Assembly: GCA_035686605.1 (NCBI GenBank) | Contig: DASRZI010000085.1 | Location: forward strand, 1-49,810 | DNA length: 49,810 nt | DNA from: Candidatus Zixiibacteriota bacterium | GTDB lineage: Bacteria; Chloroflexota; Anaerolineae; Promineifilales; Promineifilaceae | Reading direction: 5' to 3' | Shown here: positions 11,860 through 40,037 of the stretch, one piece after another | How the letters are laid out: each line of letters opens with the position of its first letter | Position numbering within the stretch: position 1 is the first letter of the stretch | Translations under genes and position numbers: made by a program | The notes under the pieces: generated by a model | Told to the model about the DNA's origin: nothing | Database searches by the model: none | What the model saw: only the letters and a program-made list of their open reading frames with translations

Positions 11860-11957
11860 CCTGAACCATACCATTACTGTTAGACGATAAAGAGATCCGT
11901 TAAATATCCAAATACTTTACAACACCTTCAAGAATAGTGACATGAGGTAGACGATAA

Positions 11958-14414: not shown

Positions 14415-14595
14415 GGCGACCACAAGTTAGAATCAAATCAGTTAACTAAATCCCACAAGTCGATTCGATTGATCAGTAGTTCCCGTGCTAAATGGTGGAA
14501 AATAGAAGAGAGGAGTCGTGGGTCAATTTGATCCTCTCTGGAATTACTCAGTCGAGGGAATTTCCCTCAGTTCATCTGTGTTGTTTCCGCGAACA

Positions 14596-15540: not shown

Positions 15541-15603
15541 TAATACTCCATGGTGTGAGGAAACACTAATAGTTGCTGGATTCTACAGCCGCTAAGGGAT
15601 TGA

Positions 15604-15635
15604 GCAACTCGCAGATCAGCGAGTCTGCGAGTTGC
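15604..15635 (-). terminator. Perfect 12-bp stem hairpin just downstream of the FucI-like gene
   Basis: gcaactcgcaga-tcagcgag-tctgcgagttgc. There is no U-tract on either strand, so it could be a terminator or an RNA-processing/stability element. Confidence 0.4.
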
Positions 15636-15661
15636 ATGGAGCTAAAGTAGGGGCAATTAAA

Positions 15662-17089
15662 CTACCGCTTGTGCTGGTAAAGATCCCAACCCAGGTAAGA
15701 TGTGATCGCTTCTTGAAGTACATCCGCACAATGATCTCGGGTCAGTGCTACATGGTGTTCAAAGCCGTTCTTACATAGAAAATTTAACAGACCTTGAAGA
15801 TCTTCAACCTGGCATACAGCCGCGCCACCATCAATTCCCACCGGATCGTCAGTAAAGTGACCCTCGCCAAGATAAGCTTTGATTGAACCTTCTGAATCAA
15901 ATGTCGACATACGGAAATATGTCATTGGTCCGGCAGCGACCTGGCCCTTTATCGCCCCAAAGCAACGGTCAGGGCCTAAGCTAGCCCCTAGGACGTCCAG
16001 GTTGGAGATTTCAACCTCTCTTCCCATAAAGCTTGCCGGGTAATTACTACAGTGGGTATTGATACACTTATTGCGATCATCCGCATAGTTGTTGTTCCAA
16101 TCCTGAAAACCTGGTGGATTCCCGGAAGCCAGCAATAAGGCATACATAGAGATTGCTCCGGCAATATCAACCTCACAGGCACTGGGCATGAATCGTTCAC
16201 CCATCATGCTCATGGATAAACATGTGGCGCAACCATAATTGTTCTGCACCGAATCCCAACATTGGATAGCACTGGCATCACACTCATTTTCTGTCATCCA
16301 GCGATCAATTACCACTGACAATTTAGACTGCTTCAAGACGTTTGCAGTCGGGATATAGTTGGGAATTGTGCCATAGTCATGGATCTCGGCAAGCTTGGTT
16401 TGAACTGCTTTGTCATCGTCTCCCAACGCCGTTGCACTGGCGAGAATTACCGACAGGTCGACAGGAATAACAGTAATTCCTGTCGCCTGCAGTATCTTTT
16501 CACTAAAGCGAACTGTCTGGAAAGCTGCAGGTCGTGCACCAATTGCCCCGATCCGGGCATTCCGGATACCCTTTACTACCCGGCAAACTCGCGAAAAGAA
16601 CTCTAGATCTTTGGCAAAATAGTCACTTTCGATGGGATATGAGTGAAGTGATGTGTTAGTAAAAGGGATACTATATTGGTGGAGGTTGTTGCAGACTGAC
16701 AATTTTCCACAGAATGAATCTCGTCTATGAGGGATGTCTAGCTTATCCAGATCATCATCGCAAGACTGGATCAACACAGGGACATCCAACTTGGCCATGT
16801 CAAGGGTTTGGACAACCCCTAGCTCATCGCCAAAATTTGGCAGGATCACCACGATACCATCTATGATATCGGAATTCTCTTTGAAGAGATTAGCGCAGAG
16901 CCTGGCATCTGCCCGAGATTCGATTGCCCCGTTTGGTGTCGCGTCAGCAGGTGGGATGACGTAGTCATAACCCAGTTCATCGAGTTTGGCTAACACCTGT
17001 ATTCGACCTTCTGCTGCCAATTGGGGATTAAAAAATCCACGAGTTGCAACTATCAGGCCAAATGTTGTTTTCTTTTCCATGATTTTCAT
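15662..17089 (-). CDS. L-fucose isomerase-family sugar isomerase (about 475 aa)
   Basis: Length and N-terminus (KTTFGLIVATRGFFNPQLAAEG...) resemble COG2407 FucI-like proteins. AAGGAG lies 6 nt upstream of the ATG. Confidence 0.75.
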   Translation of the reverse strand: MKIMEKKTTFGLIVATRGFFNPQLAAEGRIQVLAKLDELGYDYVIPPADATPNGAIESRADARLCANLFKENSDIIDGIVVILPNFGDELGVVQTLDMAKLDVPVLIQSCDDDLDKLDIPHRRDSFCGKLSVCNNLHQYSIPFTNTSLHSYPIESDYFAKDLEFFSRVCRVVKGIRNARIGAIGARPAAFQTVRFSEKILQATGITVIPVDLSVILASATALGDDDKAVQTKLAEIHDYGTIPNYIPTANVLKQSKLSVVIDRWMTENECDASAIQCWDSVQNNYGCATCLSMSMMGERFMPSACEVDIAGAISMYALLLASGNPPGFQDWNNNYADDRNKCINTHCSNYPASFMGREVEISNLDVLGASLGPDRCFGAIKGQVAAGPMTYFRMSTFDSEGSIKAYLGEGHFTDDPVGIDGGAAVCQVEDLQGLLNFLCKNGFEHHVALTRDHCADVLQEAITSYLGWDLYQHKR

Positions 17090-17235
17090 TTCTTGCTCCT
17101 TGAATAATATGTCTGGACTTGACGTATTCGAAGTTGGTTTCCAAAAACACCCTCGTTTAAAGTTTGATTTCAGGCCGAACTTAGGGCCACCATTCCTCCT
17201 TGCCCTTCAAGAGGTTTGCGGTGTTATTCCCGTAT

Positions 17236-19848
17236 TCAATGATGTTCAGGATGATCCATCACCACTGAATGGCCATGATAATAGCCAAGTTGGTGCATTC
17301 GGTTGTGCAAGGATCGATGGGATGCCTGCAGAACTAGGCGCATTCTCTTATAGGCAATATCCTCAGCTCGAGTTCCAACTGAATCTAGATAGGCTTGTGC
17401 CCCTTCGATTTGCTCCAGAATTGTCAGCGCGTCAGCCGCGGCGAACATGGGTGATCCCTGGACGTGGATCATCACAGCTGAAGAGTGAGCCGCGATGATT
17501 TCTGGTTTGTCGGGGTAGTGACCACGCACCAGCAGCGCCAGCCAAGCACTCTTATCGATCTTGACAGACCAGTGTCCACTGCCGATTTCGGAGGAGACTG
17601 GTGCGCTTTCTCGTATTTCTCCGTTTATTACCAACTCAACGCGAGTCATTGGAATGGTGGCGCTGGCGACTTGCCAATGTACTTCAAGGTTACCGCCAGT
17701 GGAGGACATCTGAATTTGGCTCCCCATGGGTTGACCATCCACGGAAAACTCAAGGAGTGGGCCATAGGTGACAAAGGTTTCCGCCTGCCTCACTGCTGCC
17801 ATCCATGTCTCGTAGTTGAAGCGCTCGTTTGGATTGATCCGGGCATAGGTGCGCACTGTGCCCACCGCTGTATTGGCTGACATTTTGTCTGTGCCACCCA
17901 CAACTGGTACCGCATAACCGCAGTTCAAATAACGGTACCAATCCGAGAGAGAGTAGGGATCGATACCTGCATACAAATTCCCCCAGGAGGTCATCTCGAT
18001 TGCGTCAACATCGTCACTCACAATGCTGGCAGCGTGCTCCGCGCGCGGGTTTGGAAAATGCGGCACAACGACCAGTCCGCCTTGTTTTTTGCATTGCCTT
18101 GCCCACTCAGTCAGCAAGATCTCGATAGGATCTCCAAGGGCGGATTCATCAGGTCCACCGGTTGTCATAGGAGCGATTATCTGACCCTGGTAACCCAGCA
18201 GAGAGATATGACCCATCACATGTTGCCGGTTCTCGGTTCCTACCCGAACCAGGTATTCGCCATCACCGCCTGCCTCGAGGGAGCCCCAGGTAGTCTTGCC
18301 ATCGAAATCACCTACATCGGTCATCAACTCGCCCCACTGGCTAGCCAACAGATTTATTACGTTTACACCTTCAGCGGAACCTTCTAGCAAGGCGGAAATT
18401 GGCGACAAAAAATGGACATGGGTATCAGCACTGACCCAGCCTTTCTCGCGCCAGGGCAGGACCTTCTTTATCTCGATCGTAATCTCCTCAGTGTCAGACG
18501 TCACATCAAAGACCATGCGCCAGGGGCGAATCTCAAAGCCCTTTGACACTTCGATGTAAACCTTGCCAAGAGGTAAATTGAGGGTCGTTTCCCCGGAAAT
18601 GTAGCTGCAAAAGTGAGCGTTGTCAGTTGAGCCATTCCATGTGCCGCCATGAACAAAATCGAAACCGTTATCTTCGAACCAGGCCGGGTTGGGGATGCGA
18701 GGCCGGTCCACCGGTGCCAGGTATTCTCCCCATTCGCCGTGGACGTGGATTTTGACGGGCACAGGTTTGCCACTGACTGTATCCACAGCTCGCAGTGTAA
18801 ATTTTCGTTTTGCTGCCGCCACCGGGCGCAGAGTGGCTGTATCCTCAACATCCGAGACTTGGTCGCCGACAACCTGCTGGATGGGAACTACCTTCCCGCT
18901 TGCGAAGTGGAAGCAGGCATCAGTGTGGGCCGTATACTCTACGATTATCTCTGTTTCAGACCTCTCTGGAATCTGGTTATTGTAGCTATCAGCCCAGTGG
19001 TCATCGGGGTAAATTGGGCGGAGAACGGCCGAGATTACCTGACCCATGTCAAGTTGAATTTGCCCGAGCAGACCACCCTCGTCCATTTCTGACAAAAAGG
19101 GTTCTCCTTTGGGCAGGCAAAGACATGCTTTTTTACGCCTTTCCCATCGAAGGGGATTAGACGCACTGTTTCCTGCGGATATCGCCGACACGATAACTAA
19201 TCCGCTAGCTGGCTCAAGACGTACGCCGCTAATCACCTTCCCTGGGTGTGGATTCTCCCACGCCCACAACCAGTTTATCCAAGGTGGATTGCCTTCGCCG
19301 CCGTCTAATTGTCTGACGCGCATCTGTGATCCCCAACCCGCTGCCTGGCTTGGCCAGCCTGGTGTTGCAAGCGGGGGGACGGGAAACGGTTTTCGATGCC
19401 CAACCGCCTCGAAGCAATTCTCACCCCAGATACGGCGAAAAGCGCCAATCTGGTAGCGGCGTCGAATCTTTACCCGTTCCTCCTCGCCGTCATGGTAGAG
19501 CAGCACATAATCAGCCGCATGCTCACCTAACTGCCCCTGGCCACGCATCGGCGAGATAAACCCGTTGGAGTCACTAACGGGCGGCCTGAGATCCGACGTA
19601 TGGGCAAAAACGAACCATTTGGCCAAGGTGGGTACAAAGTGGACAGTAACAGGCTCGTCGGAGATTGCTATAACATTATCAATATGTAAGGGTATTCCCC
19701 AACTGACGGTCTCACCCCGCGGCGCGCGATCCAAAGCGTCTGCCATCTCGTTTGTAAGAGTTAGCGTGCCCAGATCTTCTAGGGCAAAATTGCCCTGAAA
19801 GGTTAAAGCTGAAAACACTTCCGAACTGGGACCATCTTTCGTATTCAT
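17236..19848 (-). CDS. Large uncharacterised protein: about 450-aa unknown N-terminal region plus a CehA/McbA-like (PHP superfamily) metallohydrolase domain
   Basis: GWVSADTHVHFLSP (H-x-H metal motif after a beta-sandwich-like segment). Also MGHISLLG, VVPHFPNP and GGTDKMS. I chose the ATG at 19848 (MNTKDG) because of a GGGAAGG SD; the tracked ORF opens at 19908. Confidence 0.85.
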   Translation of the reverse strand: MNTKDGPSSEVFSALTFQGNFALEDLGTLTLTNEMADALDRAPRGETVSWGIPLHIDNVIAISDEPVTVHFVPTLAKWFVFAHTSDLRPPVSDSNGFISPMRGQGQLGEHAADYVLLYHDGEEERVKIRRRYQIGAFRRIWGENCFEAVGHRKPFPVPPLATPGWPSQAAGWGSQMRVRQLDGGEGNPPWINWLWAWENPHPGKVISGVRLEPASGLVIVSAISAGNSASNPLRWERRKKACLCLPKGEPFLSEMDEGGLLGQIQLDMGQVISAVLRPIYPDDHWADSYNNQIPERSETEIIVEYTAHTDACFHFASGKVVPIQQVVGDQVSDVEDTATLRPVAAAKRKFTLRAVDTVSGKPVPVKIHVHGEWGEYLAPVDRPRIPNPAWFEDNGFDFVHGGTWNGSTDNAHFCSYISGETTLNLPLGKVYIEVSKGFEIRPWRMVFDVTSDTEEITIEIKKVLPWREKGWVSADTHVHFLSPISALLEGSAEGVNVINLLASQWGELMTDVGDFDGKTTWGSLEAGGDGEYLVRVGTENRQHVMGHISLLGYQGQIIAPMTTGGPDESALGDPIEILLTEWARQCKKQGGLVVVPHFPNPRAEHAASIVSDDVDAIEMTSWGNLYAGIDPYSLSDWYRYLNCGYAVPVVGGTDKMSANTAVGTVRTYARINPNERFNYETWMAAVRQAETFVTYGPLLEFSVDGQPMGSQIQMSSTGGNLEVHWQVASATIPMTRVELVINGEIRESAPVSSEIGSGHWSVKIDKSAWLALLVRGHYPDKPEIIAAHSSAVMIHVQGSPMFAAADALTILEQIEGAQAYLDSVGTRAEDIAYKRMRLVLQASHRSLHNRMHQLGYYHGHSVVMDHPEHH

Positions 19849-19897
19849 CCAAATACCTTCCCGGTTAGTGCATTTTCGCGGCGCTCGATAGCAGGTC

Positions 19898-21001
19898 TTA
19901 AATCTCAATCCCCAATAACTGGAGTCCGATCTCCTTTATTCGATCCTCAGTGCCTACGTACAACCAGAGGAGAAGTTGGTCAGTGCTGGTGGATCGGCCT
20001 GTCTCGCCTCCGATCGTCTGCGCGTTGCACTCCATCTCGCCAAAGCCACCCAAATTACCGTCGTCATTGTAAACGTGGATTGAGTGGCCACGCGTTCCCG
20101 GAGCATCTGCAGGTTGCTCGGCGTACGTTACGGATGGATTGTTGAAAAAATTTCGTACGACCAGGTAGGCTAGATCATCGACCAATTGATTGTAATAGCC
20201 CATACGACCAAATACGTGTGCGGCCGAGTAGCCAACTTTGTACTGCCGGTCACCGGTTATCCTTAGGCGAATATGGCCAGGCAGGAGTGTTTGCAGTTTT
20301 TCATCGATGGGCTCGTAGTAGTCCGAATACGAAACATGGGGCGAAGAAGGAATCAATAAAAGACCGCCTGGATTTAACTGAATCAGATTCCATGCCGCAG
20401 CCATAAGATCATCTCGCTTGCTTTCAGAGATGGACAGAATCTGCTCGTAACCGGCAAAAAGAACCTCTTCCGTGAGATTCTCGTAGTTGCCCAGGTATCG
20501 CAGGGGGTCTGAGGCCGGATGGATTAACCGTTCCAAGTGTAATTCTTTATTACCTGCCCCTAGATTAAATGCCCCCAATACCATATCTTGTTCTAAACGC
20601 CATTGCCCAGGCTGCGTCTTTTCAAGCCGGTAGCGGCCGGGATCTACCTGGTTCGGCAAGTTATAGGTATTCCAATAGTCTGTGCGATCGTGGACATTAT
20701 ATTGAATCTCAGGGGCAATCCATATCCGGTCACCACCCAGGTTCCAATCACCTGAGTCAAGGAAATCCTGAAAGGATTCCGGTTGTGCAAAGGCGTCGTT
20801 GGTCCAGAATAGGCTCTCACCACTAGGAACAATATCAAAGGGTAAATATGGTCCAAAGATGCGCCCTCCATACTGAGATATCACTATCGATACACCGTTT
20901 TGCAACTCTAGCTTAGCATAGGCAAATCCTTTTTCCTCCAGGCAAGCGGTGATCTGGTAACGTGTGATTTTGTTGTTCATACCGGACCCATTTCCTCTCA
21001 A
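19898..21001 (-). CDS. Hypothetical protein, possibly with a galactose-mutarotase-like fold
   Basis: Long ORF in an operon context. NLGGDRIWIAPE and GGRIFGPY are reminiscent of mutarotase-like DUFs, which is weak evidence. Start is either TTG at 21001 or ATG at 20980. Confidence 0.8.
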   Translation of the reverse strand: MRGNGSGMNNKITRYQITACLEEKGFAYAKLELQNGVSIVISQYGGRIFGPYLPFDIVPSGESLFWTNDAFAQPESFQDFLDSGDWNLGGDRIWIAPEIQYNVHDRTDYWNTYNLPNQVDPGRYRLEKTQPGQWRLEQDMVLGAFNLGAGNKELHLERLIHPASDPLRYLGNYENLTEEVLFAGYEQILSISESKRDDLMAAAWNLIQLNPGGLLLIPSSPHVSYSDYYEPIDEKLQTLLPGHIRLRITGDRQYKVGYSAAHVFGRMGYYNQLVDDLAYLVVRNFFNNPSVTYAEQPADAPGTRGHSIHVYNDDGNLGGFGEMECNAQTIGGETGRSTSTDQLLLWLYVGTEDRIKEIGLQLLGIEI

Positions 21002-21011
21002 TCAATGGCGC

Positions 21012-22463
21012 TTAAGCCAAGCCCTTTTTCTTGTAGAAATGCCGGGCTTCATTAAGAATTCTGTCTAGCTCTTGATCCTGTTCTTCGGGTAGATCATGCT
21101 GATAATTGGCCAGCATCTGATCGACCATTTCCTTGGCATAGTCCAAGGCATTCTTTTTCCCGGCTGCCTCCCATTCTGGGTAGGTTAACTGGTCTGAAGC
21201 AACCGGCACATATTGTTCCTTCTGCCACCATTCCCTGGTATGAGCCTCGCCGAGGAAGAAGCCCGGTATAGGTCCTATCTGCTGGATGAGATCGAGGGCT
21301 AGCGTATCATCGCTCACCTCAACGCCCTCGAGAAACCGGCCAATCATACCCGCTACGTCATTATCCAGGATTGACAGTGCAGGGTGATAGCTCAGCTCGC
21401 CAGTCAGTCCTCCGACATAGTTGATGATGCTTGCGCCTGATATGGCTGTGAGCACGGTCGCGATAGATTTTTCATATCCGAGCTGGTAGTCGATCGATTT
21501 CGAATTGCCTGGTCCGCTGCTGCCAAACATAGTGGGGATGTTGTACTTGCCTCGCCACATCTGATTGTACATGACATTGAATAACGAGATCCCGATGCGA
21601 CCAAATCCAGGAGCCCCGGTTCGCATGTTCTGGGGAAAGACGAAGGCATTGGACAAGATTGGCGTTCGAGGCCGGACGAGTTGGACCAGGACAATACCCG
21701 ACATCACCTCGGCGTTGCTACTGACCATCCCGGCGGCTAGAGTGGCCGGTCCTGTTCCACCCAATACGGCCCCACACCCTACTTCCACAGGGTATCCGGC
21801 CTCGGCCACGTCCCAGGCACAGTTGATTGCATCACCATACCAGGTTAGTGGTGGCGCTGACTCCATGGCAGCAAAGACATCGACACCTAAAGCCTGGGCC
21901 ATCTGGATACCCCAGATGTGACTATCCTCCGCTTGTCCAATCCGAACTGGCTTTCGAAGATATTTCATCTGGCTCCAGCAACTGGTGGGCAAAAGCATTG
22001 AAGGCGCAACCCCTTCTAGCTCGCAATAAGGGGTATATGAAGGTAATAAATGAACATTCTCCAGATCGGCCAGGATCTTGATCGCATCGTGGTTGTCCTG
22101 GATGGTTGGCGTTCTAGGTTCCCAAGTGTCGATATCGATACCCCGCATGCCTGGGAAAGCTGCCCAGTGCAGTGTTCTACCTCCTATGCTCAAATCATAC
22201 TTAGGCGTTCTTCCTTTAAGATGAAAAGTGCTTGGGCAGAGGCGCAGACACTCTTCCACCAGGCCCGGAGGGATCCGCACTCTTCTTGTTTCATGATCTA
22301 CATTGCATCCATTCTTCTCAAATAATTTAAGAGCCCTTTTGCTTTCGAACCGAACCCCGGTGTGCTCTAAAACATCGAGGCTACCACGATGGATCGCCTC
22401 CACTTGCTCTTCAGTCATTATCGTTAGTGGCTTAAATCCTTGGGTATAACCCTTTGCTGGCAT
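21012..22463 (-). CDS. MttB-superfamily (trimethylamine methyltransferase-like, non-pyrrolysine) methyltransferase, paralog 1
   Basis: N-terminal hallmark LTIMTEEQVEAIHRGSLDVLEHTGVRFESKRALKLFEKNGC. Full-length ORF with no in-frame TAG. AAGGAG SD. Confidence 0.9.
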   Translation of the reverse strand: MPAKGYTQGFKPLTIMTEEQVEAIHRGSLDVLEHTGVRFESKRALKLFEKNGCNVDHETRRVRIPPGLVEECLRLCPSTFHLKGRTPKYDLSIGGRTLHWAAFPGMRGIDIDTWEPRTPTIQDNHDAIKILADLENVHLLPSYTPYCELEGVAPSMLLPTSCWSQMKYLRKPVRIGQAEDSHIWGIQMAQALGVDVFAAMESAPPLTWYGDAINCAWDVAEAGYPVEVGCGAVLGGTGPATLAAGMVSSNAEVMSGIVLVQLVRPRTPILSNAFVFPQNMRTGAPGFGRIGISLFNVMYNQMWRGKYNIPTMFGSSGPGNSKSIDYQLGYEKSIATVLTAISGASIINYVGGLTGELSYHPALSILDNDVAGMIGRFLEGVEVSDDTLALDLIQQIGPIPGFFLGEAHTREWWQKEQYVPVASDQLTYPEWEAAGKKNALDYAKEMVDQMLANYQHDLPEEQDQELDRILNEARHFYKKKGLA

Positions 22464-22496
22464 TTTCTTGCTCCTTAATCGCAGCTACGTTTTGGA

Positions 22497-23141
22497 TCAA
22501 ACTGGCAAATTTAACATTTTCTTTGCCAACTCCACCGCTCCCGGTGCTGTTGATCCATAGCCGTCGGCGCCAATCATGTCAGCAAATTCCTGCGTAATAG
22601 CGCCACCACCGACCATAATCTTTACTCTGTCTCTAAGCCCGGCTTCCTTTAAGGCATCGATCACCTTGCCCATCTGAGGGGCGGTAGTGGTCAGGAGAGC
22701 TGACAATGCCAGAATGTCGGCCGTTTCTTCCCGTACTGCCTCGACGAAGCGGGAAGCCGGCGTATCAGCGCCCACATCCACAACGCGGAATCCTTGAGCT
22801 ACCAACAGGACACCGACCATCGACTTGCCGATGGTATGAATATCGCCCGCCACAGTTCCGAGGACTATGGTACCAAGGCTCTTTGATTGCTGGCCTCTCT
22901 TGCGAATCTCTTCCTCCAGGATCGGCATGGCTGCCTGGCTTGCGCCGGCCGCGCCCACTAGGTCAGGTAGCCAGAGTGTTCCCGTGGAATAACCGTTCCC
23001 TACATAAGTCATAGCCTCCGAAATTGCATCCAGACCTTCAAGGGGATCTAGACCCTCGTCCACAATCGTTTGCGCACTGGCCGCGGCCTTGTTCTGGTTG
23101 TACTCAATCACTGCTGATTTTAGATCATCAAACACACTCAT
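22497..23141 (-). CDS. Corrinoid (cobalamin-binding) protein, MtbC/MttC/MtgC-like
   Basis: B12-binding DxHxxG motif (GDIHTIGKSMV), SALLTTT, MVGGGAI. An N-terminal helical B12-binding_2-like cap. GGAGGA SD. Confidence 0.9.
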   Translation of the reverse strand: MSVFDDLKSAVIEYNQNKAAASAQTIVDEGLDPLEGLDAISEAMTYVGNGYSTGTLWLPDLVGAAGASQAAMPILEEEIRKRGQQSKSLGTIVLGTVAGDIHTIGKSMVGVLLVAQGFRVVDVGADTPASRFVEAVREETADILALSALLTTTAPQMGKVIDALKEAGLRDRVKIMVGGGAITQEFADMIGADGYGSTAPGAVELAKKMLNLPV

Positions 23142-23190
23142 TTTCCCTTATCCTCCTCTAAAATTCTTACTGTAAAGCCTTGAAACTTCA

Positions 23191-24645
23191 TTACATCAAA
23201 CCCTTCTTGTGATAGTAATGCTTGGCTTCCTCCAATATTCTGTCGAGCTCCACTTCTTTATCTTCGGGCAAATCGTGCTCATAGTTGGCGATTAGCTCGT
23301 TAACCCTTTCTTTGGCATTATCTATGGCGCTTTTTTTCCCCGCCGCCTGCCATTCTGTGTACGTCAGTTGGTCAAAAACCTGGGGTACAAACTGTTCCTT
23401 GTGCCAGTTTTCTCTGGTATGTGATTCGCCCAGGAAAAAGCCTGGGATGGGTCCGACTTGTTGGATCAGATCGAGGGCGAGCGTCTCTTCATTCACATGA
23501 AGCCCTTCAAGAAAACGCCCAATCATGCCCGCCATGTCGTTGTCTAACACACTTACCACCGGATGGTATGTCAATTCGCCGTGCAGACCGCCAATAGCAT
23601 TTATGATTGATCCGCCGGAGAGCGCCCCGATGGTACAGGCCATAGCCTTCTCGTAGCCGTACTGGGCGTCAGGCAACTTTGAAGCCATGGGACCACAGGC
23701 GCCAAGCAATGTTGGTAACCCATATTTGGCTCGCCACATCTGAGTATAACCCGCCTGGAACAGAGAAATACCAATTTGCCCAAAGCCAGGCGCACCGGTC
23801 CTCATATTCTGCGGAAAGACAAAACAGTTGGCGATTGTTCCTAACCCTGGGCGTAATAGCTGCACCAGCACAATACCCGACATCATCTCGGCGTTACTGG
23901 CTACTAGGCCGCCGGCAAAGGTGGCGGGACCTGTACCACCCAGCACAGCGCCACAGCCGACCTCGATAGGGAACCCGGCCTCGGCATGGGCCCAGGCGCA
24001 TTCTATGGCATCTCCGTACCACGTCAGCGGCGGTGCGGATTCGAAGGAACCAAACACATCAATATCCAGCACCTGTGCCATCTGAATACCCCACAACCAG
24101 CTCTCTTCAGCCTGTCCCACCCGGAACGGCTTGGTAAAGTATTTCATTCGGCTCCAGCAACTTGTCGGCAGCAGCATTGCTGGCGCCACACCCTCCAATT
24201 CACAATAAGGCACATAGGAAACAGACAGGTGCACATGCTCCAGGCTGTCCAGGACCTTCACTGCATTATGGTTTTCCTCGATTGTTGGTGTCCGTGGCTC
24301 CCAGGTGTCGATATCTACGGTCCTCATTCCGGGAAACACACAGAAGTAGGTTGGATTGTTGGCACTCAGATTGAGATCATTTTTTGGATTTCTGGCCCTA
24401 AGATGAAAGCTCGTGGGACATCTGCGCAGGCATTCCTCAACCAATCCGGGAGGGAATCTAACGCGCTTATTTTCAAAATCGACCTTGCAACCATTTTTTT
24501 CAAATAGTTTGAGAGCTTTTTCGCTCTCGAACCGAATGCCGGTGTGTTCCAGAACATCGAGACTACCCCGATGGATGGACTCCATTTGCTCTTCAGTCAG
24601 TATTTCGAGTGGTCTGAAGTTCCTCATGAATCCTCTAGCTGGCAT
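23191..24645 (-). CDS. MttB-superfamily methyltransferase, paralog 2
   Basis: Collinear with paralog 1 and roughly two-thirds identical by eye (LEILTEEQMESIHRGSLDVLEHTGIRFESEKALKLFEKNGC). ATG at 24645 follows GAAGGAG; the tracked ORF begins at a TTG at 24651. Confidence 0.9.
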   Translation of the reverse strand: MPARGFMRNFRPLEILTEEQMESIHRGSLDVLEHTGIRFESEKALKLFEKNGCKVDFENKRVRFPPGLVEECLRRCPTSFHLRARNPKNDLNLSANNPTYFCVFPGMRTVDIDTWEPRTPTIEENHNAVKVLDSLEHVHLSVSYVPYCELEGVAPAMLLPTSCWSRMKYFTKPFRVGQAEESWLWGIQMAQVLDIDVFGSFESAPPLTWYGDAIECAWAHAEAGFPIEVGCGAVLGGTGPATFAGGLVASNAEMMSGIVLVQLLRPGLGTIANCFVFPQNMRTGAPGFGQIGISLFQAGYTQMWRAKYGLPTLLGACGPMASKLPDAQYGYEKAMACTIGALSGGSIINAIGGLHGELTYHPVVSVLDNDMAGMIGRFLEGLHVNEETLALDLIQQVGPIPGFFLGESHTRENWHKEQFVPQVFDQLTYTEWQAAGKKSAIDNAKERVNELIANYEHDLPEDKEVELDRILEEAKHYYHKKGLM

Positions 24646-24797
24646 AATCAACGCTCCTTCTTCTTAAAATATTAATGTCTGTAAGTCGGGTATAGATAGA
24701 GCCTATTCATCAAGTTTTTCCAACAGGCGCCACTTATTAAAACACGGTTACTCCAACTTTTGACTCATTTTTTTATCGACCACTTCTACCGATCACA

Positions 24798-25349
24798 TCA
24801 GACCTTCTCATCTCTGATTGGGTAAAGAATTTTTTCAGGCTCCAATCGTCCCTTGGGTCGTTCGATCAACTCGAGAGTAATGCCAATCTTGTCTTCGGTG
24901 TCCAGGTACGCATAGTGACCATCACCATCGAGCCCAAACCCTGCCCCATCTTGGGTCATCATCAAACCTGCGGCTTCTGCATCGGCGATTGCCTTTTCCA
25001 TATTATCGACCAGCACGCCAAAATGATGTACGCCGTAGCCATGCTCGTTGACAAAATCTGCGTAGACAGTGTCACCTTCTACCATCTCAATAAGTTCGAT
25101 GCGCATCGGGCCTAGATAGGACAACGCAATCCGCATTTTGTACTCTGTGGGTTGTCCTTGGTAGGTCATGCTTTTCAACAGGGGCTTTCCGTATGTGTAG
25201 AAATGCCATTCCTCAATTCCGAACACGCTCCAGTAGTTCTCGACGGCTTTTTCCAGATCTTCAACTATGATTGCCACCTGGGCTATGCCGTTCTTTAGGA
25301 AAGGCAACGTTTGTTGAATATTCTTCTCAACCATTGAGATATGCCTCAT
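24798..25349 (-). CDS. VOC-family (glyoxalase/dioxygenase/epimerase-like) protein
   Basis: [24 protein letters not shown]... and [21 protein letters not shown] are typical of paired beta-alpha-beta-beta-beta VOC modules. An alternative ATG at 25334 overlaps the upstream stop. Confidence 0.8.
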
Positions 25350-26400
25350 CAGCGTAGAACACTGGCTTAAGGACCTTTCCCTCGAGCATCATTGTGGCGC
25401 CTTTTTTAAACTCTGAGAGAGGGAACCGGTGGGTAATCAGCTTGTCTCCCGGAATCCGCCCGGAAGCCAGGAACTTTAAAGCCGCCCGTTGGTGGCGGGG
25501 AGCGAAAGCTGTAGTACCGATAATCTGTAATGCCCCGTAGTGGACGATGTTCATATCCACTCCTGGTTTGCTATTGTCTTTTGGCAGGCCGCCAAAAATA
25601 AGAATCCGCCCGGCTTTTCTGGCCATCTCGACGGCCTGGACCGAGGCGATAGGCGCTGGCGTAGCAGTGATGACCACGTCCGCCCCTTTCCCGCCAGTCA
25701 ACCTGCGGACTTCCTGGACCAAATCGGTTTCGGCCGCATTGATGGTGGCATCTGGTCCAAAAGGTTCCGCCAGTTTCAACCGTTCACTCACGATGTCAGC
25801 GATATAGATCCTGTCTGCCCCCCTTGCTCTAGCGAGGCTAATGTGCGTGCATCCGATGGGTCCGCTGCCAATGATTACTACGGTATCTCCCAGTCCGATC
25901 TGTCCACGTTCTTGGGCGTTCATACAGGAAGAAGTTGGCTCAGAAATTCCAGCCAAGGCCGGATCCAATCCCTCAGGTGGGCGGTGGATGGTTCCCAACC
26001 TGACGCACTCTTCAGGAATGGCCAGGTACTCGGCAAGGCCGCCAGGCCACTTTTGGGCGATCTCAACATAATTCTCACAGAGCTCATAGGCCCCATCTAT
26101 ACAGAAATCGCAGATTCCACAGTAGGCATTGGGTCCCACAGCCAGCCTCTCGCCAACTTCCCATGATCCCTGATACTTGCTGCCGACCATGGCCACATCC
26201 CCGCAGATCTCGTGGCCGATGATCCACGGGAAGGTCACATTTCTGTGACCACCCCGCAATGTCCTCAGGTCTGAGCCACACAAGCCACAGGCGATCACCC
26301 TCAACAATAAGCCCGCCTCCGGGCACTCTGGCACCGGTACATCCTCCACGTCAAACTGCATCGGTGCCCGTACTACCACTGCTTTCATCGTTTTCTTCAC
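25327..26400 (-). CDS. Zinc-dependent medium-chain alcohol/polyol dehydrogenase
   Basis: [16 protein letters not shown], a structural-zinc Cys cluster ([15 protein letters not shown]) and the Rossmann motif IGSGPIG. Confidence 0.9.
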
Positions 26401-26438
26401 CGTTTTCCCCCTCCTATGCTGTTTACGCTGAACACCGT

Positions 26439-27734
26439 CTACGCATCCATCTTGCGTTGGGCATCCTGTATCTTTCGCAGCTCGTACACAAACTTGGAAC
26501 TATCCGGTGCAAAGTTTACCTCAGTCAGCATTTCACCCTTCTTGATATCCTTGAGAACCTTGCCGCCTGGAGCCAAACCTAGGGGAATCGCTCCCTGCGC
26601 ATGGGCGTCATCATAAAGATAAGTGCGGCCGTAGATGTCTGAACTGCCAATCTCCCCAGCGATTTCTCCCACTCTTAAGTCACGTTTGGCGATCGTCGCC
26701 ACTTCTGACACCATCCGCCTGGAAATGATGGCACTTTCACCGTAGATGGCGGCTTCGGCTATCGATGTAGTTGTCTCGATGCTGCACAAATGGAAAGGAC
26801 GGTACAGGGTATAGTACGGCCCATCCCCCATAGAGTAGAACTTCATGTCTGCCCTAACGACGCGATCGGGCGAGCTGATGATGGCGAACACGCCCGGCGC
26901 CACCTTACCGGTGGAATAGTCAACGCAGCCCCGGCGGCCGAGGATGCCACCATCTTCCTTGGGGATAAACACCTTGTTTAAATCTGGCACGTCCACCCTA
27001 AGTCCATGCATGCCTGGCATATCTGGCACCAGGCCAGTGGCGTTAGACATGGCAGCAAGTTCGACCATAGTCTTGGAGCCATCCTTAAATGCGGACAACA
27101 TCTTTGGATTCATACCCTTACTCTCGGCTTCTTCCCGACAAGAGTCGGGCGTCGCATTAAAATCAATGACATTATTCTTGCCTTTTCCCAGGCAGACGAC
27201 TTCAAAACCCATTGTTCCGGCAAGGTTGTATAGCATCTTGGCCACGCCCGGCTCGTCGCCAGAGGCGGCCGTATAAACACAACCGGCCTGCTGTGCCAGA
27301 CGGTTCAAAAGTGGACCCACCGTCACATCGGTCTCTACATTCAGCATTATGATGTGTTTTCCGTTAAGAATGCAATTCCAGGCCACTCTGGCGCCAACCT
27401 CGGTAAGTCCAGTTGCTTCTACTACTGCATCCAGGTTCTCTAGTTTCGCCAACATAACAGCATCTTCAGTAACCACGTACTTTCCGGCGAGTAGTGCATC
27501 TTGGGCTTCAGTAACCTTGTTCGTAACAATGATTTCTGACTTAGGAACGCCGATTCCCGCCAGAGCAGCCAACGGACGGCTGACGTCGATATCAGATATG
27601 GCTATAGTACTCATCCCGACCGTCTGATTAGTAACGTGGACCAATCCCGTGCCCATCTGGCCACAACCGACCAGGCCGACGCGGATTGGTTTTCCCACTG
27701 CTTCTAATCGTTGTAAGTGTTCAAATATTTCCAT
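26439..27734 (-). CDS. NAD(P)-binding oxidoreductase with a C-terminal SAF domain (COG4091-like, homoserine-dehydrogenase-like)
   Basis: Rossmann motif [14 protein letters not shown]. The C-terminus [10 protein letters not shown]...[15 protein letters not shown] is SAF-like. Confidence 0.8.
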
Positions 27735-27782
27735 TATTGCTATCTCCTAATATGGCCTCCAGGGCCGTTGCTTTGCTCTAAA

Positions 27783-28670
27783 CTACACGGCCCCTATGCA
27801 CCCCATCAGTCTCATTACCCGTGCAGTATCCTCCCTGAAGAAGTCAATCGCCCGAGAGATAATATCGTGATATACGATCCCTTCTTGAACAGGATTTACC
27901 AGCAGCCTCCGGATATCGTCGGTCGCTCGCCTGCCCATGACACTATAGTAATTAATTTTACTGATGCCGCTCTTGATAATCCTTTGGTATTCGGTATCCG
28001 CCAAGCCTGAGGCGCCATGCATCACTAGCGGTACTTTTACCAGGCTATATATCTCCCGTACCCGATCCAGATCAATATTGGGTTCACCCACATACAGACC
28101 GTGTACGTTCCCAAAGGATATGGCTAAAGCATCAATCCCGGTTCTTTCCACAAAATCCAAGGCCAGCTCCGGATCGGTGAACATATTATCACGAGAGTCG
28201 TTGTCAGAACTCTCCATGGGCATGGCGACATCCCCAGTTTCTATCGAAGAACCCGCGATGCGGCCTAGTTCCGCTTCGACATCGACACCCACCGCGTGGG
28301 CAACCCTCACTACTTCCTTTGTCTGTCTGACATTCTCCTCATAGGACAGAGTTGAACCGTCAAACATAACTGAGGAAGAACCAAGGAGAATGGCCCTGAC
28401 TACAGCTTCGAGGCTCTTACCATGATCCAAGATGGTAGCTACGGGCACCTTTGCCCGCCTGGCTGCATTCACCAGTAGCGGCATGCCCAGTTCCATAGGA
28501 ACCTTGGGTGTTACCTCCTGGGTGAAAGTCATGATTAACGGCGCACGAAGCTGCTCAGCGGCCGAGATCTGGCCGACTACCATTTCTAGATTGCCGCCGA
28601 GTAGGCTCGGTACGCCGTATTGCTTGGCTCTCGCTTCCGTTAGTAATTCCTTGACGCCGACTAGAGGCAT
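27783..28670 (-). CDS. Class II fructose/tagatose-bisphosphate aldolase-family protein (aldolase or related epimerase)
   Basis: Motifs in FBA_II order: ILDHGKS, VMFDGS, EAELG, GNVHG, LVMHGASG. Confidence 0.88.
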   Translation of the reverse strand: MPLVGVKELLTEARAKQYGVPSLLGGNLEMVVGQISAAEQLRAPLIMTFTQEVTPKVPMELGMPLLVNAARRAKVPVATILDHGKSLEAVVRAILLGSSSVMFDGSTLSYEENVRQTKEVVRVAHAVGVDVEAELGRIAGSSIETGDVAMPMESSDNDSRDNMFTDPELALDFVERTGIDALAISFGNVHGLYVGEPNIDLDRVREIYSLVKVPLVMHGASGLADTEYQRIIKSGISKINYYSVMGRRATDDIRRLLVNPVQEGIVYHDIISRAIDFFREDTARVMRLMGCIGAV

Positions 28671-28682
28671 GCTCAGTTCTCC

Positions 28683-29582
28683 CTAGATCTGCAATGCAAA
28701 GCCGTTCGGAAACTCTGGGCTGAGCTGGTAGTCCACGATGCGTTCCACGAGCTTCAAGTAATCAATCCCATCCCTGGCAGCTGTGTCTGAATCGGGGACC
28801 ATTGGCGCACTTTCGATAGTGCAGTAACCATCGTAGCCACTCTTCTTCACCGCCCGGAAAACTGATTTAAAATCGACCGTCCCATATCCCGGAGTCAAAG
28901 AATTTGAGTCCCGGAAGTGCATATGCCATAGTAGGGGAAATGCATCCATCACTGCCTCGTAGGGATTCAGTTCCTCAAAATTGGCGTGAAACCAATCCAG
29001 TTGTATTCCGATATTGTCCCTTCCGGTCAGCTCAATCATTCGCTTGTGGTTCAATGATGTATTAACAAATTTGCCCATCTCCAGGTGATTTGTCGCTTCA
29101 AAGACCAACCGTACGTCCTTTTCTTGGGCATAATTTGACATTCGCTGTAGAGCATCAACAGCTATCATTGTGCAATCTGAAACATTGTTAACTGTAACGT
29201 CGTCGTGAATGGCCACTGCTACCGTCACAAAGGGTGCCCCCAGTTCTGCGGCAAAATCTATCGAGGACCTGGTTTCCGAAACAGCCAGGTCCGCTGTTTT
29301 TGGCTCGGTTAAGGTCTTGTAAGTTGGCGAAAAAGGATCCCACTCCTCTCCCCAGCACTCGTTAATGCACGAGACATCTAAGCCAAAGTCGGCTTTAAGG
29401 GCTTTGTGGGTTTCGAGATAATCTTCCATCTTGACGCCCAGTCCGTAACGCCCCTTAGGTGGAGTGATCTCTATGGCATCGTACCCGAACTTCTTCAGTC
29501 GCTCATAGGTTATTACTGGATTCAAATAGGCTTCTTCTTGGCCAAAGGTTAGCTGGAAATAACTGTATTTCAGTTGGTTCAC
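28683..29582 (-). CDS. Sugar phosphate isomerase/epimerase (xylose isomerase-like TIM barrel)
   Basis: Size and pattern (YDAIEI...; FEATNH; WHMHFRDSN; YCTIE) are typical of the AP_endonuc_2/TIM-barrel family. Confidence 0.8.
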   Translation of the reverse strand: MNQLKYSYFQLTFGQEEAYLNPVITYERLKKFGYDAIEITPPKGRYGLGVKMEDYLETHKALKADFGLDVSCINECWGEEWDPFSPTYKTLTEPKTADLAVSETRSSIDFAAELGAPFVTVAVAIHDDVTVNNVSDCTMIAVDALQRMSNYAQEKDVRLVFEATNHLEMGKFVNTSLNHKRMIELTGRDNIGIQLDWFHANFEELNPYEAVMDAFPLLWHMHFRDSNSLTPGYGTVDFKSVFRAVKKSGYDGYCTIESAPMVPDSDTAARDGIDYLKLVERIVDYQLSPEFPNGFALQI

Positions 29583-29638
29583 TGTTACCCTCCTAATAGT
29601 CTTCTTTGTGTAATCTTCTTCCGAGGATCCTTGCCTTT

Positions 29639-30658
29639 CTACTCACTCCATCCGCGTCCGTTAGGGTGGATGAAGGCTTTGACATCCTGCTTCGCCCGCA
29701 AGTTGGCAAAGGCTGTTTCCCACTCTGCCAGTTCATAGTGATTTGTAATCATGGGCTCAAGATCAAAGAGGTCCCGATCCAACAAATCGACGGCATGTTC
29801 CCAGGTTTCCCTGCCGTTCCAACTCCAGCTTCCGCGGATGTCGATTTGTCCGAGGCTGACTTGATCGAGATTGATCGTGATTTCGCGACCCCATAAGCTG
29901 ATAAAGACGATGACACCCTTGCCGCCAGGACCTTCGTAAGCCTTGCGAGCACAGTCAATGGCATGTTGAACACCGCCCTGACTGGCCGAGCACTCTAGCA
30001 CAAATTCAGCTCCCTTACCGCCAGTGACCTCCATTACTGTCTTTTCCGGATGGTCTTCCGAGTAGAGCGTATAATCTGCTCCACACTGGCGACCGATGTC
30101 AAGCCGTTTCTCGTCACTCTTAAGGCCGATAAGGAATACACAGCGAGCCCCGCAGATTTTGGCATACTGAACCCCGACAATGCCCATCGGCCCAGGTCCA
30201 ACGACGACAACATCATCGCCAACGTTGACTTGAGCTCTTTCCTGTATAAGGTGGTGCGTTGCGACTATGGGTTCGGCCAAACAAGCATTATCTAAGGAAA
30301 CATGATTAGGCACACGATATATCACCTGTTCAGGTACACGCATATACGGCGCACAAGCGCCGTCAATCGTGACACCCAACCATCGTCCTTCTCCACACTC
30401 GATATCGGCGACGAACTTGTCCCCCTCCTTAACTCTGGTCACTTCCTTCCCAACTTTGAATGCCACCCCAGAGAATTCATGGCCCAAGGTGACCGGAGCA
30501 TCGTAAAAGTGCCGGTCTTCCTGGATCAGCAGGTCACTACCGCAGATTCCGGCAGCCCAGACCTTCATTAGTACCTCGCTTGGACCTATCTCTGGGATCG
30601 GAACTTCACACAATTCAAGGTGTCCAATCCCCTCTTTAATCTTGCGTAATGCCTGCAT
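29639..30658 (-). CDS. Zinc-dependent medium-chain alcohol/polyol dehydrogenase (second copy)
   Basis: ICGSDL, GHEFSGV, VVVGPGPMG. I chose the ATG at 30658 (MQALRK), preceded by GGAGATAAGG; the tracked ORF opens at a TTG at 30685. Confidence 0.9.
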   Translation of the reverse strand: MQALRKIKEGIGHLELCEVPIPEIGPSEVLMKVWAAGICGSDLLIQEDRHFYDAPVTLGHEFSGVAFKVGKEVTRVKEGDKFVADIECGEGRWLGVTIDGACAPYMRVPEQVIYRVPNHVSLDNACLAEPIVATHHLIQERAQVNVGDDVVVVGPGPMGIVGVQYAKICGARCVFLIGLKSDEKRLDIGRQCGADYTLYSEDHPEKTVMEVTGGKGAEFVLECSASQGGVQHAIDCARKAYEGPGGKGVIVFISLWGREITINLDQVSLGQIDIRGSWSWNGRETWEHAVDLLDRDLFDLEPMITNHYELAEWETAFANLRAKQDVKAFIHPNGRGWSE

Positions 30659-30717
30659 CCTTATCTCCAAAGCTGGAAAAATCAACGATCAACGGATAAT
30701 TCAGGAGTTAATAATCG

Positions 30718-32229: not shown

Positions 32230-32234
32230 AGCTC

Positions 32235-33887: not shown

Positions 33888-33891
33888 AAAA

Positions 33892-35013: not shown

Positions 35014-35023
35014 TCCCCCTTAC

Positions 35024-35974: not shown

Positions 35975-35998
35975 GGTCCCTCCAACTTAGAGAATTAA

Positions 35999-36026: not shown

Positions 36027-36052
36027 AAACTCCAATGTTGTATGCTTAGCTA

Positions 36053-37727: not shown

Positions 37728-37729
37728 GA

Positions 37730-40028: not shown

Positions 40029-40037
40029 GCTCGTGTC

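Follow-up and report, generated by a model that had tools for sequence, protein, structure and literature searches.

A corrinoid protein and two MttB-superfamily methyltransferases in a Chloroflexota sugar operon: a candidate cobalamin-dependent sugar demethylase

Characterised MttB systems and the trio in the window

The characterised enzymes of the MttB superfamily all take a methyl group from nitrogen, their donors being TMA, glycine betaine, proline betaine, carnitine, butyrobetaine and phosphocholine (PMC13080624; PMC12155760; PMC8604678). In MtgB of Desulfitobacterium hafniense (PDB 2QNE, 9YCE), residue R312 binds the acid group of the substrate, and this arginine is conserved in MtcB, MtpB, MthB and MtyB (PMC13080624). 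E. limosum, an acetogen, uses several methyltransferase (MT1) paralogs, MtpB, MtcB and MtyB, with the shared corrinoid carrier MtqC and with MtqA and RamQ, and its genes for MT1, corrinoid protein and MT2/activase lie in separate clusters (PMC8604678). The MthB/MthK pair demonstrates that the true substrate of such an enzyme can be the product of a kinase (PMC12155760).

The window, i.e. the whole stretch of 49,810 nucleotides from an uncultured Chloroflexota bacterium that was analysed, carries a comparable trio on its minus strand: MttB-B, a non-pyrrolysine MT1 of 484 aa (23191 to 24645; PF06253, 267 bits), its cognate corrinoid (B12-binding) protein, CoP, of 214 aa (22497 to 23141; PF02310, 87 bits, and PF02607, 32 bits), and a second MT1 paralog, MttB-A, of 483 aa (21012 to 22463; PF06253, 256 bits). 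The open reading frame list extends MttB-B to a TTG at 24651; the ATG at 24645 is the likelier start. CoP holds the DxHxxG cobalt-ligand motif as DIHTIG at residues 100-105 (22827 to 22844, minus strand), followed by SAL and GGG motifs, and scores 184.5 bits against TIGR02370, slightly below the cut-off of 215.3. The initial annotation had proposed two full-length, non-pyrrolysine MttB paralogs around a corrinoid protein; the genes are intact and correctly placed, and the HMMER searches that it had suggested return the expected families for all three. Its estimate by eye of about two-thirds identity between the paralogs agrees with the measured 69% identity (84% similarity over 483 residues), and internal stop codons, hence any in-frame TAG, are absent from all three genes. 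The dN/dS ratios against the close relative L094 are 0.03-0.06 (MttB-A 0.029, CoP 0.064), with 94%, 90% and 89% identity between orthologs for MttB-A, MttB-B and CoP, respectively. Judged by these ratios, all three genes are functional and under strong purifying selection.

Placement of the paralogs and their substrate pockets

The window MttBs share Pfam family and fold with MtgB (182 bits), and also resemble it as non-pyrrolysine enzymes adjoining a DxHxxG corrinoid protein. They share superfamily and fold with pyrrolysine MttB, the partner of MttC (PDB 7XCL, 7XCN; 150-157 bits), and the AF2 model of MttB-B (pLDDT 87.8) gives a TM score of 0.88 to each. Unlike pyrrolysine MttB, they have no UAG codon, carry Pro at the aligned pyrrolysine position of the M. 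barkeri enzyme, and score 275 and 301 bits against TIGR02369, below its cut-off of 525. Identity to MtgB is only 28%, and the two proteins belong to an MttB subfamily found in uncultured organisms only. As far as could be checked, neither paralog falls within a characterised MttB clade, a placement that the initial annotation had likewise suggested examining.

The pocket differs from that of MtgB. The position of the acid-binding R312 is Leu in MttB-B and Met in MttB-A and is never Arg across the window's clade; H348 has no conserved counterpart; and the aromatic ligand F356 gives way to a Glu that is invariant in the clade within the motif GEL[TS][YH]H. The position of MtgB Y97 is Phe in the HMMER pairwise alignment and Pro in the MAFFT alignment, and an aromatic residue is probably kept there. 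MttB-A has its own orthologs in L094, L001, L002, L011 and L097-L100, and MttB-B in L094, L001 and L002. The two are orthologous lineages of old standing, and the pocket loops hold most of what sets them apart: 13 of the 31 fixed differences between them fall within residues 316-355 (hypergeometric p=8e-8), and both show the same invariant catalytic signature.

The sugar operon, the inserted module and its partner proteins

The neighbours of MtgB/MtgC encode a betaine transporter, MT2 and activase, whereas those of the window trio are genes for sugar transport and catabolism. The trio lies inside a string of 21 co-directional sugar genes on the minus strand (41093 down to 14596), and the gaps around its genes are 31-152 bp, which bears out the tight spacing first described for the locus. 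The uptake and regulation block (32235 to 41093, minus strand) contains a GroEL-like protein, two CUT1 ABC permeases, a TAT-signal solute-binding protein, a second FGGY kinase, a KdsD-like SIS isomerase and a SorC-family regulator. The catabolic block (25327 to 32229, minus strand) contains a Zn-ADH, DRL (a DXR-like oxidoreductase), a class II ketose-bisphosphate aldolase, a xylose-isomerase-like TIM barrel (IolO-like epimerase), another Zn-ADH and an FGGY (xylulokinase-like) kinase. A glyoxalase/VOC-family gene (24798 to 25349, minus strand; PF13669) and a DUF6786 gene (19898 to 21001, minus strand; PF20583) form the upstream and downstream edges of the trio's insertion site. Further along the same strand lies a CehA/McbA-type (PHP-like) metallohydrolase with an unknown N-terminal half (17236 to 19908, likely start ATG at 19848, 870 aa; NF038032, 136 bits, residues 490-812), which also occurs in the MttB-A/B loci L001, L002 and L094 and whose family is common in other Anaerolineae contexts. 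It is followed by an L-fucose/L-arabinose-isomerase-like aldose-ketose isomerase (15662 to 17089, minus strand; PF02952), with orthologs at 72-87% identity in L090, L092, L094 and L095. The final gene of the string encodes a BNR-repeat protein (F510_1955-family glycosylhydrolase-like; 14596 to 15540, minus strand), kept in L092, L094 and L001 and fused to the GroEL-like protein in L002. Divergent from the operon, an E2 and a fused E1 (alpha-beta) of a 2-oxoacid/acetoin-dehydrogenase-type complex (10486 to 14414, plus strand) are kept beside it in L092, L094 and L095.

Locus L092 has the window's gene set and order at 63-87% identity, including the catabolic block in identical order (66-87%), but no MttB or CoP: its glyoxalase ortholog (83% identity) is followed directly by DUF6786, to which the window protein is 63% identical (75% to the L094 ortholog). 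MttB is likewise missing from the versions of the operon in L095 and L090. The trio is therefore an add-on module inserted into a widespread Chloroflexota sugar operon. Neither the window operon nor the MttB-free L092 and L095 contains an aminotransferase, deaminase or amine oxidase. In L090, orthologs of the solute-binding protein and permease (68% and 81% identity to the window) lie beside two GH140 apiosidases and a GH28, which hints at a pectin-derived substrate; L092 and L095 are free of glycosidases.

At least nine further loci, from Chloroflexota and Spirochaetota, carry the trio, or CoP with one MttB, inside this set of sugar genes. L094 has the gene order of the window; L001 and L002 have RhaM-CoP-CehA-MttBx2-3-ZnADH-AP_endonuc_2-SIS-ZnADH-FGGY; L005, L013 and L016 have SorC-SIS-ZnADH-DRL-FGGY-FucI-CoP-MttB, the FucI-like isomerase adjoining CoP-MttB; L018 (Spirochaetes) has FGGY-SIS-aminotransferase-ZnADH, then CoP-MttB, then CUT2 ABC; and L099 has GroEL-like-BNR-...-CoP-MttB-A. 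In the tree, the clade around the window MttBs is sugar-associated throughout. Because the two are found together in no fewer than five different arrangements and in two phyla, the link between the trio and sugar catabolism is functional and the adjacency is not accidental.

The initial annotation had stressed that MT2 and activase partners are missing. Pfam searches covering 30 ORFs, among them all those of at least 200 aa outside overlapping frames, indeed detected no MT2 (URO-D or pterin-binding) and no RACo/RamA-type activase in the window, and tblastn of the window with five MT2/activase proteins from related loci gave no match at E<=1. Among 82 non-redundant loci of the subfamily, however, CoP is present in 48, MT2 in 26 and RACo in 20, so that the subfamily is a real three-component system. 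In related loci, e.g. L009, L019 and L020, URO-D or pterin-binding MT2 and RACo-type activases adjoin MttB-CoP(-MttB). Since related loci have these partners and E. limosum encodes them elsewhere in the genome, their absence beside the trio is ordinary and no special feature.

What the trio may demethylate

The trio probably acts on the operon's own carbohydrate substrate; methyl removal before sugar processing, one of the options raised at the outset, remains the best reading. The trio would be the substrate-specific front half of a cobalamin-dependent methyl transfer, with two MT1s and one shared carrier, and the host operon would serve for uptake and breakdown of a sugar that is neutral and probably comes from pectin. 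The CUT1 ABC transporter would bring in a methylated sugar or small glycoside; MttB-A and MttB-B would differ in the methylated sugar, or in the methyl position, that they recognise, and both would transfer the methyl to Co(I) CoP; and the freed sugar would enter the isomerase, kinase and aldolase route. Methyl-Co(III) CoP would then give up its methyl to tetrahydrofolate through an MT2 (URO-D or pterin-binding type), and a RACo-type activase would reduce any CoP that had occasionally lapsed to Co(II); the genes for these two partners would lie outside the window.

As to the methyl-bearing atom, we lean towards oxygen, and removal of a methyl ether from a neutral sugar is tentatively favoured. 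The host operon exists without MttB and has no aminotransferase or deaminase, so that a single demethylation must release the neutral substrate that it normally handles. Candidates are 2-O-methyl-fucose and 2-O-methyl-xylose of rhamnogalacturonan II, in which a C2 O-methyl would block aldose-ketose isomerisation; this pectin contains both, together with apiose (bioRxiv 10.64898/2026.03.13.711244). A P450 6-O-methyl-D-galactose demethylase of marine porphyran degraders is analogous in role only, as an accessory enzyme within utilisation genes that removes a methyl ether blocking catabolism (PMC6292453). It is oxygen-dependent, of unrelated fold and releases formaldehyde, whereas the proposed system would be oxygen-independent and conserve the methyl on corrinoid and folate. 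The corrinoid-dependent enzymes that demethylate aryl methyl ethers in acetogens and Desulfitobacterium, and the methanol system MtaB/MtaC, likewise combine an MT1 with a corrinoid protein, an MT2 and a RACo-type activase. They show that Co(I) can take a methyl from oxygen provided that the leaving group is activated; their MT1s belong to other protein families, and their methyl donors are phenyl methyl ethers or zinc-activated methanol rather than sugars. Unless activated by an acid or a metal, alkyl methyl ethers donate methyl groups poorly, and to our knowledge O-demethylation by the MttB fold is unprecedented.

A less likely alternative, also from the initial annotation, is that the operon takes up a sugar, aminocyclitol or sugar-amino-acid conjugate that is N-methylated or bears a trimethylammonium group, and from which the MttBs strip N-methyls via CoP, possibly removing successive groups before the carbon skeleton is degraded. 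All characterised relatives are N-demethylases (PMC13080624; PMC12155760; PMC8604678). The invariant Glu could pair with the cationic nitrogen of an acid-free substrate, and MthB offers a precedent for a kinase-prepared substrate in an operon with two FGGY kinases. In the sister clade, MttB genes stand with a class III aminotransferase (L018), M24/creatinase-like hydrolases (seven loci), and a hydantoinase (L022), racemases and D-aminopeptidase (L017, L022). Such nitrogen-handling genes speak against an O-methyl substrate, as do the restriction of the pectin link to one locus family (L090/L091) and the uncharacterised state of the host operon itself. Against nitrogen stands the lack of amino-removing enzymes noted above. 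Since non-pyrrolysine MttBs take only one methyl from a quaternary amine, a dimethylamino sugar would be left over that the host pathway could not process, and we know of no natural, abundant trimethylammonium sugar. A quaternary amine is neither the sole candidate nor plainly the best one, the acid-binding Arg of all characterised quaternary-amine enzymes being missing.

It is improbable that the substrate of the trio is a common small quaternary amine or another C1 donor (e.g. an osmolyte), and that the trio only happens to lie in one transcription unit, or at one insertion hot spot, with the sugar genes. The host operon does work without the trio, and more distant subfamily members have non-sugar contexts (DUF364/DUF1638/TrmO; acyl-CoA dehydrogenase with CoA ligase; TRAP). 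However, the sugar set is shared across arrangements and phyla, the window's clade is wholly sugar-associated, and the carboxylate-binding residues are missing. Sugar-type ABC genes occur in 23 of the 82 loci and TRAP transporters in 8, and no betaine-type transporter is present among the annotated recurring neighbour clusters. The initial suggestion that one paralog charges CoP with a methyl from a donor and its sister passes that methyl on to an acceptor, making MT2 unneeded, would fit the lack of MT2 in the window, the flanked carrier gene and the divergent pocket loops, but is very improbable, given that a single MttB with CoP occupies the same sugar context in L005, L013, L016, L018, L011 and L099, the trio of L009 (a more distant branch) adjoins a URO-D MT2 and RACo activase, L019 and L020 of the window's own clade have MT2 genes, the carrier gene of L001 and L002 lies outside their group of three MttB copies, both paralogs retain the invariant signature, and several MT1s of different substrates sharing one carrier is the known E. 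limosum pattern.

If the favoured O-demethylation of a neutral sugar is true, a methylated sugar would be a new type of substrate for the MttB family.

Family membership of the trio and its partner genes

The two putative substrate:corrinoid methyltransferases (MT1), MttB-B (23191-24645/24651, minus strand) and MttB-A (21012-22463, minus strand), match the MttB profile PF06253 at 267 and 256 bits, respectively, against a gathering cut-off of 25 bits. Both cover the profile over nearly its full length (positions 22-489 of 500), and they share 69% identity with each other. The corrinoid protein (CoP; 22497-23141, minus strand; 214 aa) lies 49 bp from MttB-B and 33 bp from MttB-A, and all three reading frames are free of internal stop codons. 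Their dN/dS values against the close relative L094 are 0.03-0.06, no higher than those of the neighbouring sugar genes. The AlphaFold (AF2) model of MttB-B has a pLDDT of 87.8, and Foldseek aligns it with 2QNE, 9YCE and 7XCL at a TM of 0.88 and an rmsd of 2.7-3.0 over about 480 columns; the predicted fold is the TIM-barrel of MtgB/MttB with a C-terminal extension. By profile, MttB-A and MttB-B are classed as full-length MttB-superfamily members and candidate corrinoid-dependent MT1 enzymes. A pyrrolysine trimethylamine methyltransferase was considered and rejected: there is no in-frame UAG, the residue aligned with the pyrrolysine of M. barkeri MttB (X of 7XCL) is Pro, and TIGR02369 gives 275 and 301 bits vs 525.

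The corrinoid protein contains PF02607 and PF02310, with a B12-binding_2 cap and a Rossmann B12-binding domain, and carries DIHTIG at residues 100-105, SAL at 147 and a GGG motif. Its scores (184.5, 176.5, 174.8 and 171 bits) fall below the cut-offs of the named corrinoid subfamilies (TIGR02370, 215.3; MtgC, 310 or 370; MtbC, 350), and it is assigned to the methyltransferase cognate corrinoid family, outside the named kinds. From match lengths, motifs, stop codons, fold and dN/dS, the initial annotation of two full-length non-pyrrolysine MttB genes flanking a DxHxxG corrinoid protein therefore stands as written.

The same annotation had recorded that a methylcorrinoid:THF or CoM methyltransferase (MT2) and a reductive activase are absent alongside the trio, and this holds for the whole window: Pfam and tblastn (E<=1) searches of the 49.8 kb, which make up the entire contig, found neither an MT2 of the URO-D or pterin-binding type nor a RACo/RamA activase. 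The subfamily was surveyed with one genome per species at identities of at least 42%, which gave 79 loci. All 79 of these closest loci come from MAGs or SAGs and none from a cultured organism; they belong to Chloroflexota, Spirochaetota, Aerophobetes, Dehalococcoidia, Actinomycetota and Thermodesulfobacteriota. Across the 82 loci compared (the survey loci after deduplication, further related loci and the window), a corrinoid protein lies near MttB in 48, an MT2 in 26 (URO-D 15, pterin-binding 12), a RACo-type activase in 20, sugar-type ABC genes in 23 and TRAP transporters in eight. Within the window's own clade, L019 has a pterin-binding MT2 and RACo, L020 has URO-D, and a URO-D gene (425 aa) is found at the edge of L001, an 83% relative. 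On a more distant branch, L009 (Aerophobetes) combines MttB-CoP-MttB with a URO-D MT2, RACo, a CUT2 sugar ABC transporter and an FGGY kinase. In E. limosum, the MT1 genes, mtqC and mtqA/ramQ belong to different clusters, and three MT1s share a single carrier (PMC8604678). The window shares this known pattern of the superfamily, in which MT1 paralogs use a common corrinoid carrier and the partners are encoded elsewhere, and the absence of MT2 and activase beside the trio is nothing unusual.

More distant members of the subfamily have other neighbours. Dehalococcoidia loci (L044, L051, L053, L066-L068, L073 and L075) hold two or three tandem MttB genes next to an acyl-CoA dehydrogenase, an ADP-forming CoA ligase, an altronate/galactarate-dehydratase-like protein, a pterin-binding MT2 and RACo, and other distant members adjoin TRAP transporters. 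These Dehalococcoidia and TRAP-associated members look like separate uncharacterised substrate classes.

The host operon and its versions with and without MttB

The trio is part of a string of 21 co-directional genes on the minus strand, which extends from 41093 down to 14596, most gaps being below 60 bp. The string begins with a SorC regulator, a KdsD-like SIS isomerase and an FGGY kinase, followed by a TAT-signal binding protein (36053-37531), two CUT1 permeases and a GroEL paralog (32235-33926, minus strand; 563 aa, 362 bits to a GroEL subfamily model). A second FGGY kinase, a Zn-ADH, an IolO-like TIM-barrel epimerase and a class II ketose-bisphosphate aldolase precede a DXR-like oxidoreductase (DRL; 26439-27734, minus strand; 330 bits to Brucella DRL, 3UPY/3UPL). 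Another Zn-ADH and a glyoxalase-fold protein lead into the trio, after which come a DUF6786 protein (19898-21001, minus strand), a CehA/McbA-type metallohydrolase (17236-19908, minus strand; 870-890 aa), a fucose/arabinose-isomerase-like (FucI-like) protein and a BNR protein. Promoter and terminator scans of 14400-34000 found sites no more frequent than in shuffled sequence, so no operon boundaries were drawn, and no cobalamin riboswitch or other Rfam RNA was found in the window.

Related loci place MttB and the corrinoid protein repeatedly among the same genes, in varied orders. L094 has the gene order of the window plus an extra DJ-1/PfpI gene, with identities of 90% for MttB-B, 89% for CoP and 94% for MttB-A. 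L001 and L002, Chloroflexia MAGs related at 83% and 77%, hold GroEL-like/BNR, GDSL, RhaM, CoP, CehA-like, two to three MttB, Zn-ADH, AP_endonuc_2, SIS, a further Zn-ADH and FGGY genes. At about 59% identity, L005, L013 and L016 carry SorC, SIS, Zn-ADH, DRL, FGGY, FucI-like, CoP, one MttB and an M24 hydrolase. In L018, a Spirochaetes MAG, FGGY, SIS, aminotransferase and Zn-ADH genes adjoin CoP-MttB and a CUT2 sugar ABC transporter, and L099 keeps GroEL-like, BNR, CoP and MttB-A together. A neighbour-joining tree places all eight loci in the clade that contains the window proteins. This recurrence upholds the view that the association of MttB with sugar genes is more than chance adjacency, and judged by gene content the sugar link of the trio is non-accidental.

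The operon also occurs without the trio. L092 reads FGGY, Zn-ADH, (GDSL), AP_endonuc_2, aldolase, DRL, Zn-ADH, glyoxalase, DUF6786, (GFO_IDH_MocA), FucI-like, fused E1, E2, BNR; its genes are 63-87% identical to those of the window and share their order, and DUF6786 comes straight after the glyoxalase gene, with MttB and CoP both absent. L095 and L090/L091 are further MttB-free versions. The host operon would thus handle some sugar without the trio, which extends it, and these comparisons show the trio to be an add-on module. L090 encodes an orthologous transporter (binding protein 68%, permease 81%) together with GH28 and two PF13204 apiosidases, which we take to be GH140. In this one locus family (L090/L091), the glycosidases point to complex pectin as the source. 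Rhamnogalacturonan II (RG-II) contains apiose, 2-O-methyl-fucose and 2-O-methyl-xylose (bioRxiv 10.64898/2026.03.13.711244).

Several other features of the operon deserve description. The GroEL paralog, a chaperonin-like fixed member of this catabolic operon, sits between the ABC permeases and an FGGY kinase. L095 and L099 keep it in this place, and L002 has it joined to the BNR-repeat protein in a fusion of 867 aa. The DRL homolog is a core gene of the host operon (26439-27734 in the window; 4779-6071 in L090), and the DRL-containing operon could encode a route, so far undescribed, for apiose, a branched sugar, or for some other rare sugar of pectin. A 442-aa gene of L018 was considered as a DRL homolog and proved to be a class III aminotransferase. 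Two E1/E2 sets of the 2-oxoacid/acetoin-dehydrogenase type flank the operon on the plus strand (10486-14414 and 41654-46010), one with an E1 fused alpha-beta (818 aa). The fused E1 and E2 pair is kept beside the operon in L092, L094 and L095, and E1/E2 genes also accompany MttB in L003, L005, L011 and L097-L100; the flanking sets suggest that thiamine-dependent cleavage of a keto-sugar belongs to the pathway. DUF6786 is a constant member (L092, L094, L095), for which a PDB sequence search detected no relatives of known structure; the same searches gave nothing usable for the CehA-like and FucI-like proteins. The C-terminal half of the CehA-like protein is a CehA/McbA metallohydrolase, and its 490-residue N-terminal half matches nothing. 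This protein was considered as an MttB-specific partner (window, L001, L002, L094) and rejected: it is highly conserved and very common in Anaerolineae (more than 120 sequence clusters at 66% identity or above) and occurs in unrelated contexts too.

In the sister clade, the gene found most regularly beside MttB, apart from that of the corrinoid protein, encodes an M24 hydrolase (seven loci: L003, L005, L012, L013, L015, L016 and L022), which often carries a creatinase N-terminal domain. L022 adds hydantoinase A/B, and L018 adds the class III aminotransferase. The substrates of these sister-clade members may be N-methylated amides or amidines.

Outside the operon, a surface-type protein of 1571 aa (1636-6351, plus strand), which combines Chlamydia-PMP repeats with DUF11 and Ig-like domains, lies in a stretch of 59-61% GC vs about 50% in the rest of the window. 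At the far end (48002-49357, plus strand) lies the gene for a 451-aa protein whose N-terminal domain is CoiA-like; it appears unrelated to the operon.

Pocket residues and the two paralogs

The structure of MtgB provides a reference for the substrate pocket. Its ligands for the quaternary nitrogen are Y97 and F356, and those for the carboxylate are R312 and H348; the equivalent of R312 is conserved in MtcB, MtpB, MthB and MtyB (WP_013382626.1), where it binds the carboxylate or phosphate of the substrate (PMC13080624). Whereas these enzymes for acid-bearing quaternary amines have the Arg, the window paralogs lack it: the R312 position is Leu313 in MttB-B and Met312 in MttB-A by both HMMER and MAFFT, and no member of the window's clade has Arg there. 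The F356 position is Glu in both alignments and is invariant in 33 subfamily members within the motif GEL[TS][YH]H. Only these two positions are firm, since the mapping of Y97 and H348 shifts by one column between HMMER and MAFFT. The Y97 position is Phe by HMMER pairwise alignment and Pro by MAFFT, and an aromatic residue is probably kept there as Phe, subject to the alignment used. The H348 position is Asn or Ala/Tyr depending on the alignment, not His. With the Arg absent and Glu at the F356 position, an acid-bearing betaine or phosphocholine would be an unlikely substrate. Window MttB is 28% identical to MtgB, which is an outgroup in the neighbour-joining tree. The characterised references used in the comparison were MtgB, Pyl-MttB and a Sinorhizobium homolog.

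MttB-A and MttB-B each have their own orthologs in L094, L001 and L002, and the tree shows them to be old orthologous lineages. Fixed differences between them are concentrated in residues 316-355 (13/31; p=8e-8), a stretch that spans two loops, one matching the pyrrolysine loop in the alignment and the other that of MtgB H348/F356. This clustering fits two substrate specificities that would share one carrier. The earlier suggestion that one paralog acts on the donor side and the other on the acceptor side is contradicted on four counts: single-MttB loci exist in the same sugar context, an A-type MttB and CoP occur without B in L011 and L097-L100, L009 carries both the trio and a classical MT2, and both window paralogs keep the same invariant signature.

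Candidate substrates and their meaning for the family

Glycans of plants, algae and bacteria commonly contain methylated sugars, whose methyl group stands in the way of ordinary sugar catabolism. The MttB superfamily is very large and, to our knowledge, has only a handful of known substrates, all of them methylamines or quaternary amines. The trio probably demethylates the operon's own carbohydrate-type substrate. That this substrate is a methyl-ether (O-methyl) sugar is a tentative but credible reading. The host operon has no enzyme for removal of an amino group; in such a neutral-sugar operon, one demethylation should therefore give its normal substrate. A 2-O-methyl group would block an aldose-ketose isomerase, which favours the O-methyl reading, and the pectin hint from L090 would also count for a methyl-ether sugar.

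A fuller form of the O-methyl reading, which we regard as speculative and rather doubtful, is that the subfamily comprises O2-independent, cobalamin-dependent demethylases of methyl-ether sugars. The two paralogs would serve two O-methyl sugars of pectin, for example 2-O-methyl-L-fucose and 2-O-methyl-D-xylose of RG-II, and the invariant Glu/His loop GEL[TS][YH]H would supply the putative acid or metal group needed to activate the ether oxygen, with Glu357, His361 and a third residue as possible metal ligands. An N-methylated carbohydrate-type compound is an unlikely substrate, and several observations speak for it: every characterised member of the superfamily is a nitrogen demethylase, the invariant Glu could pair with a cation, and MttB genes of the sister clade neighbour an aminotransferase, M24/creatinase-like hydrolases, or hydantoinase and racemases.

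An oxygen-dependent P450 demethylates 6-O-methyl-galactose (PMC6292453). No other route of sugar demethylation, and no paper linking MttB or corrinoid proteins to methylated sugars, was found in the literature searched. What is new here is a conserved, uncultured-only clade with an altered pocket, present as a module inside sugar operons. With no acid-binding Arg and with its genes built into sugar operons, this clade provides a concrete candidate for a new substrate class, and one that can be cloned. Such a class would also tie glycan degradation to the folate C1 metabolism of Chloroflexota, Spirochaetota and Aerophobetes that are abundant in soil and sediment. If the O-methyl reading is true, the MttB superfamily would gain its first non-nitrogen substrate class, and methylated sugars their first anaerobic route. 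Were the substrate N-methylated instead, it would still be the family's first of carbohydrate type.
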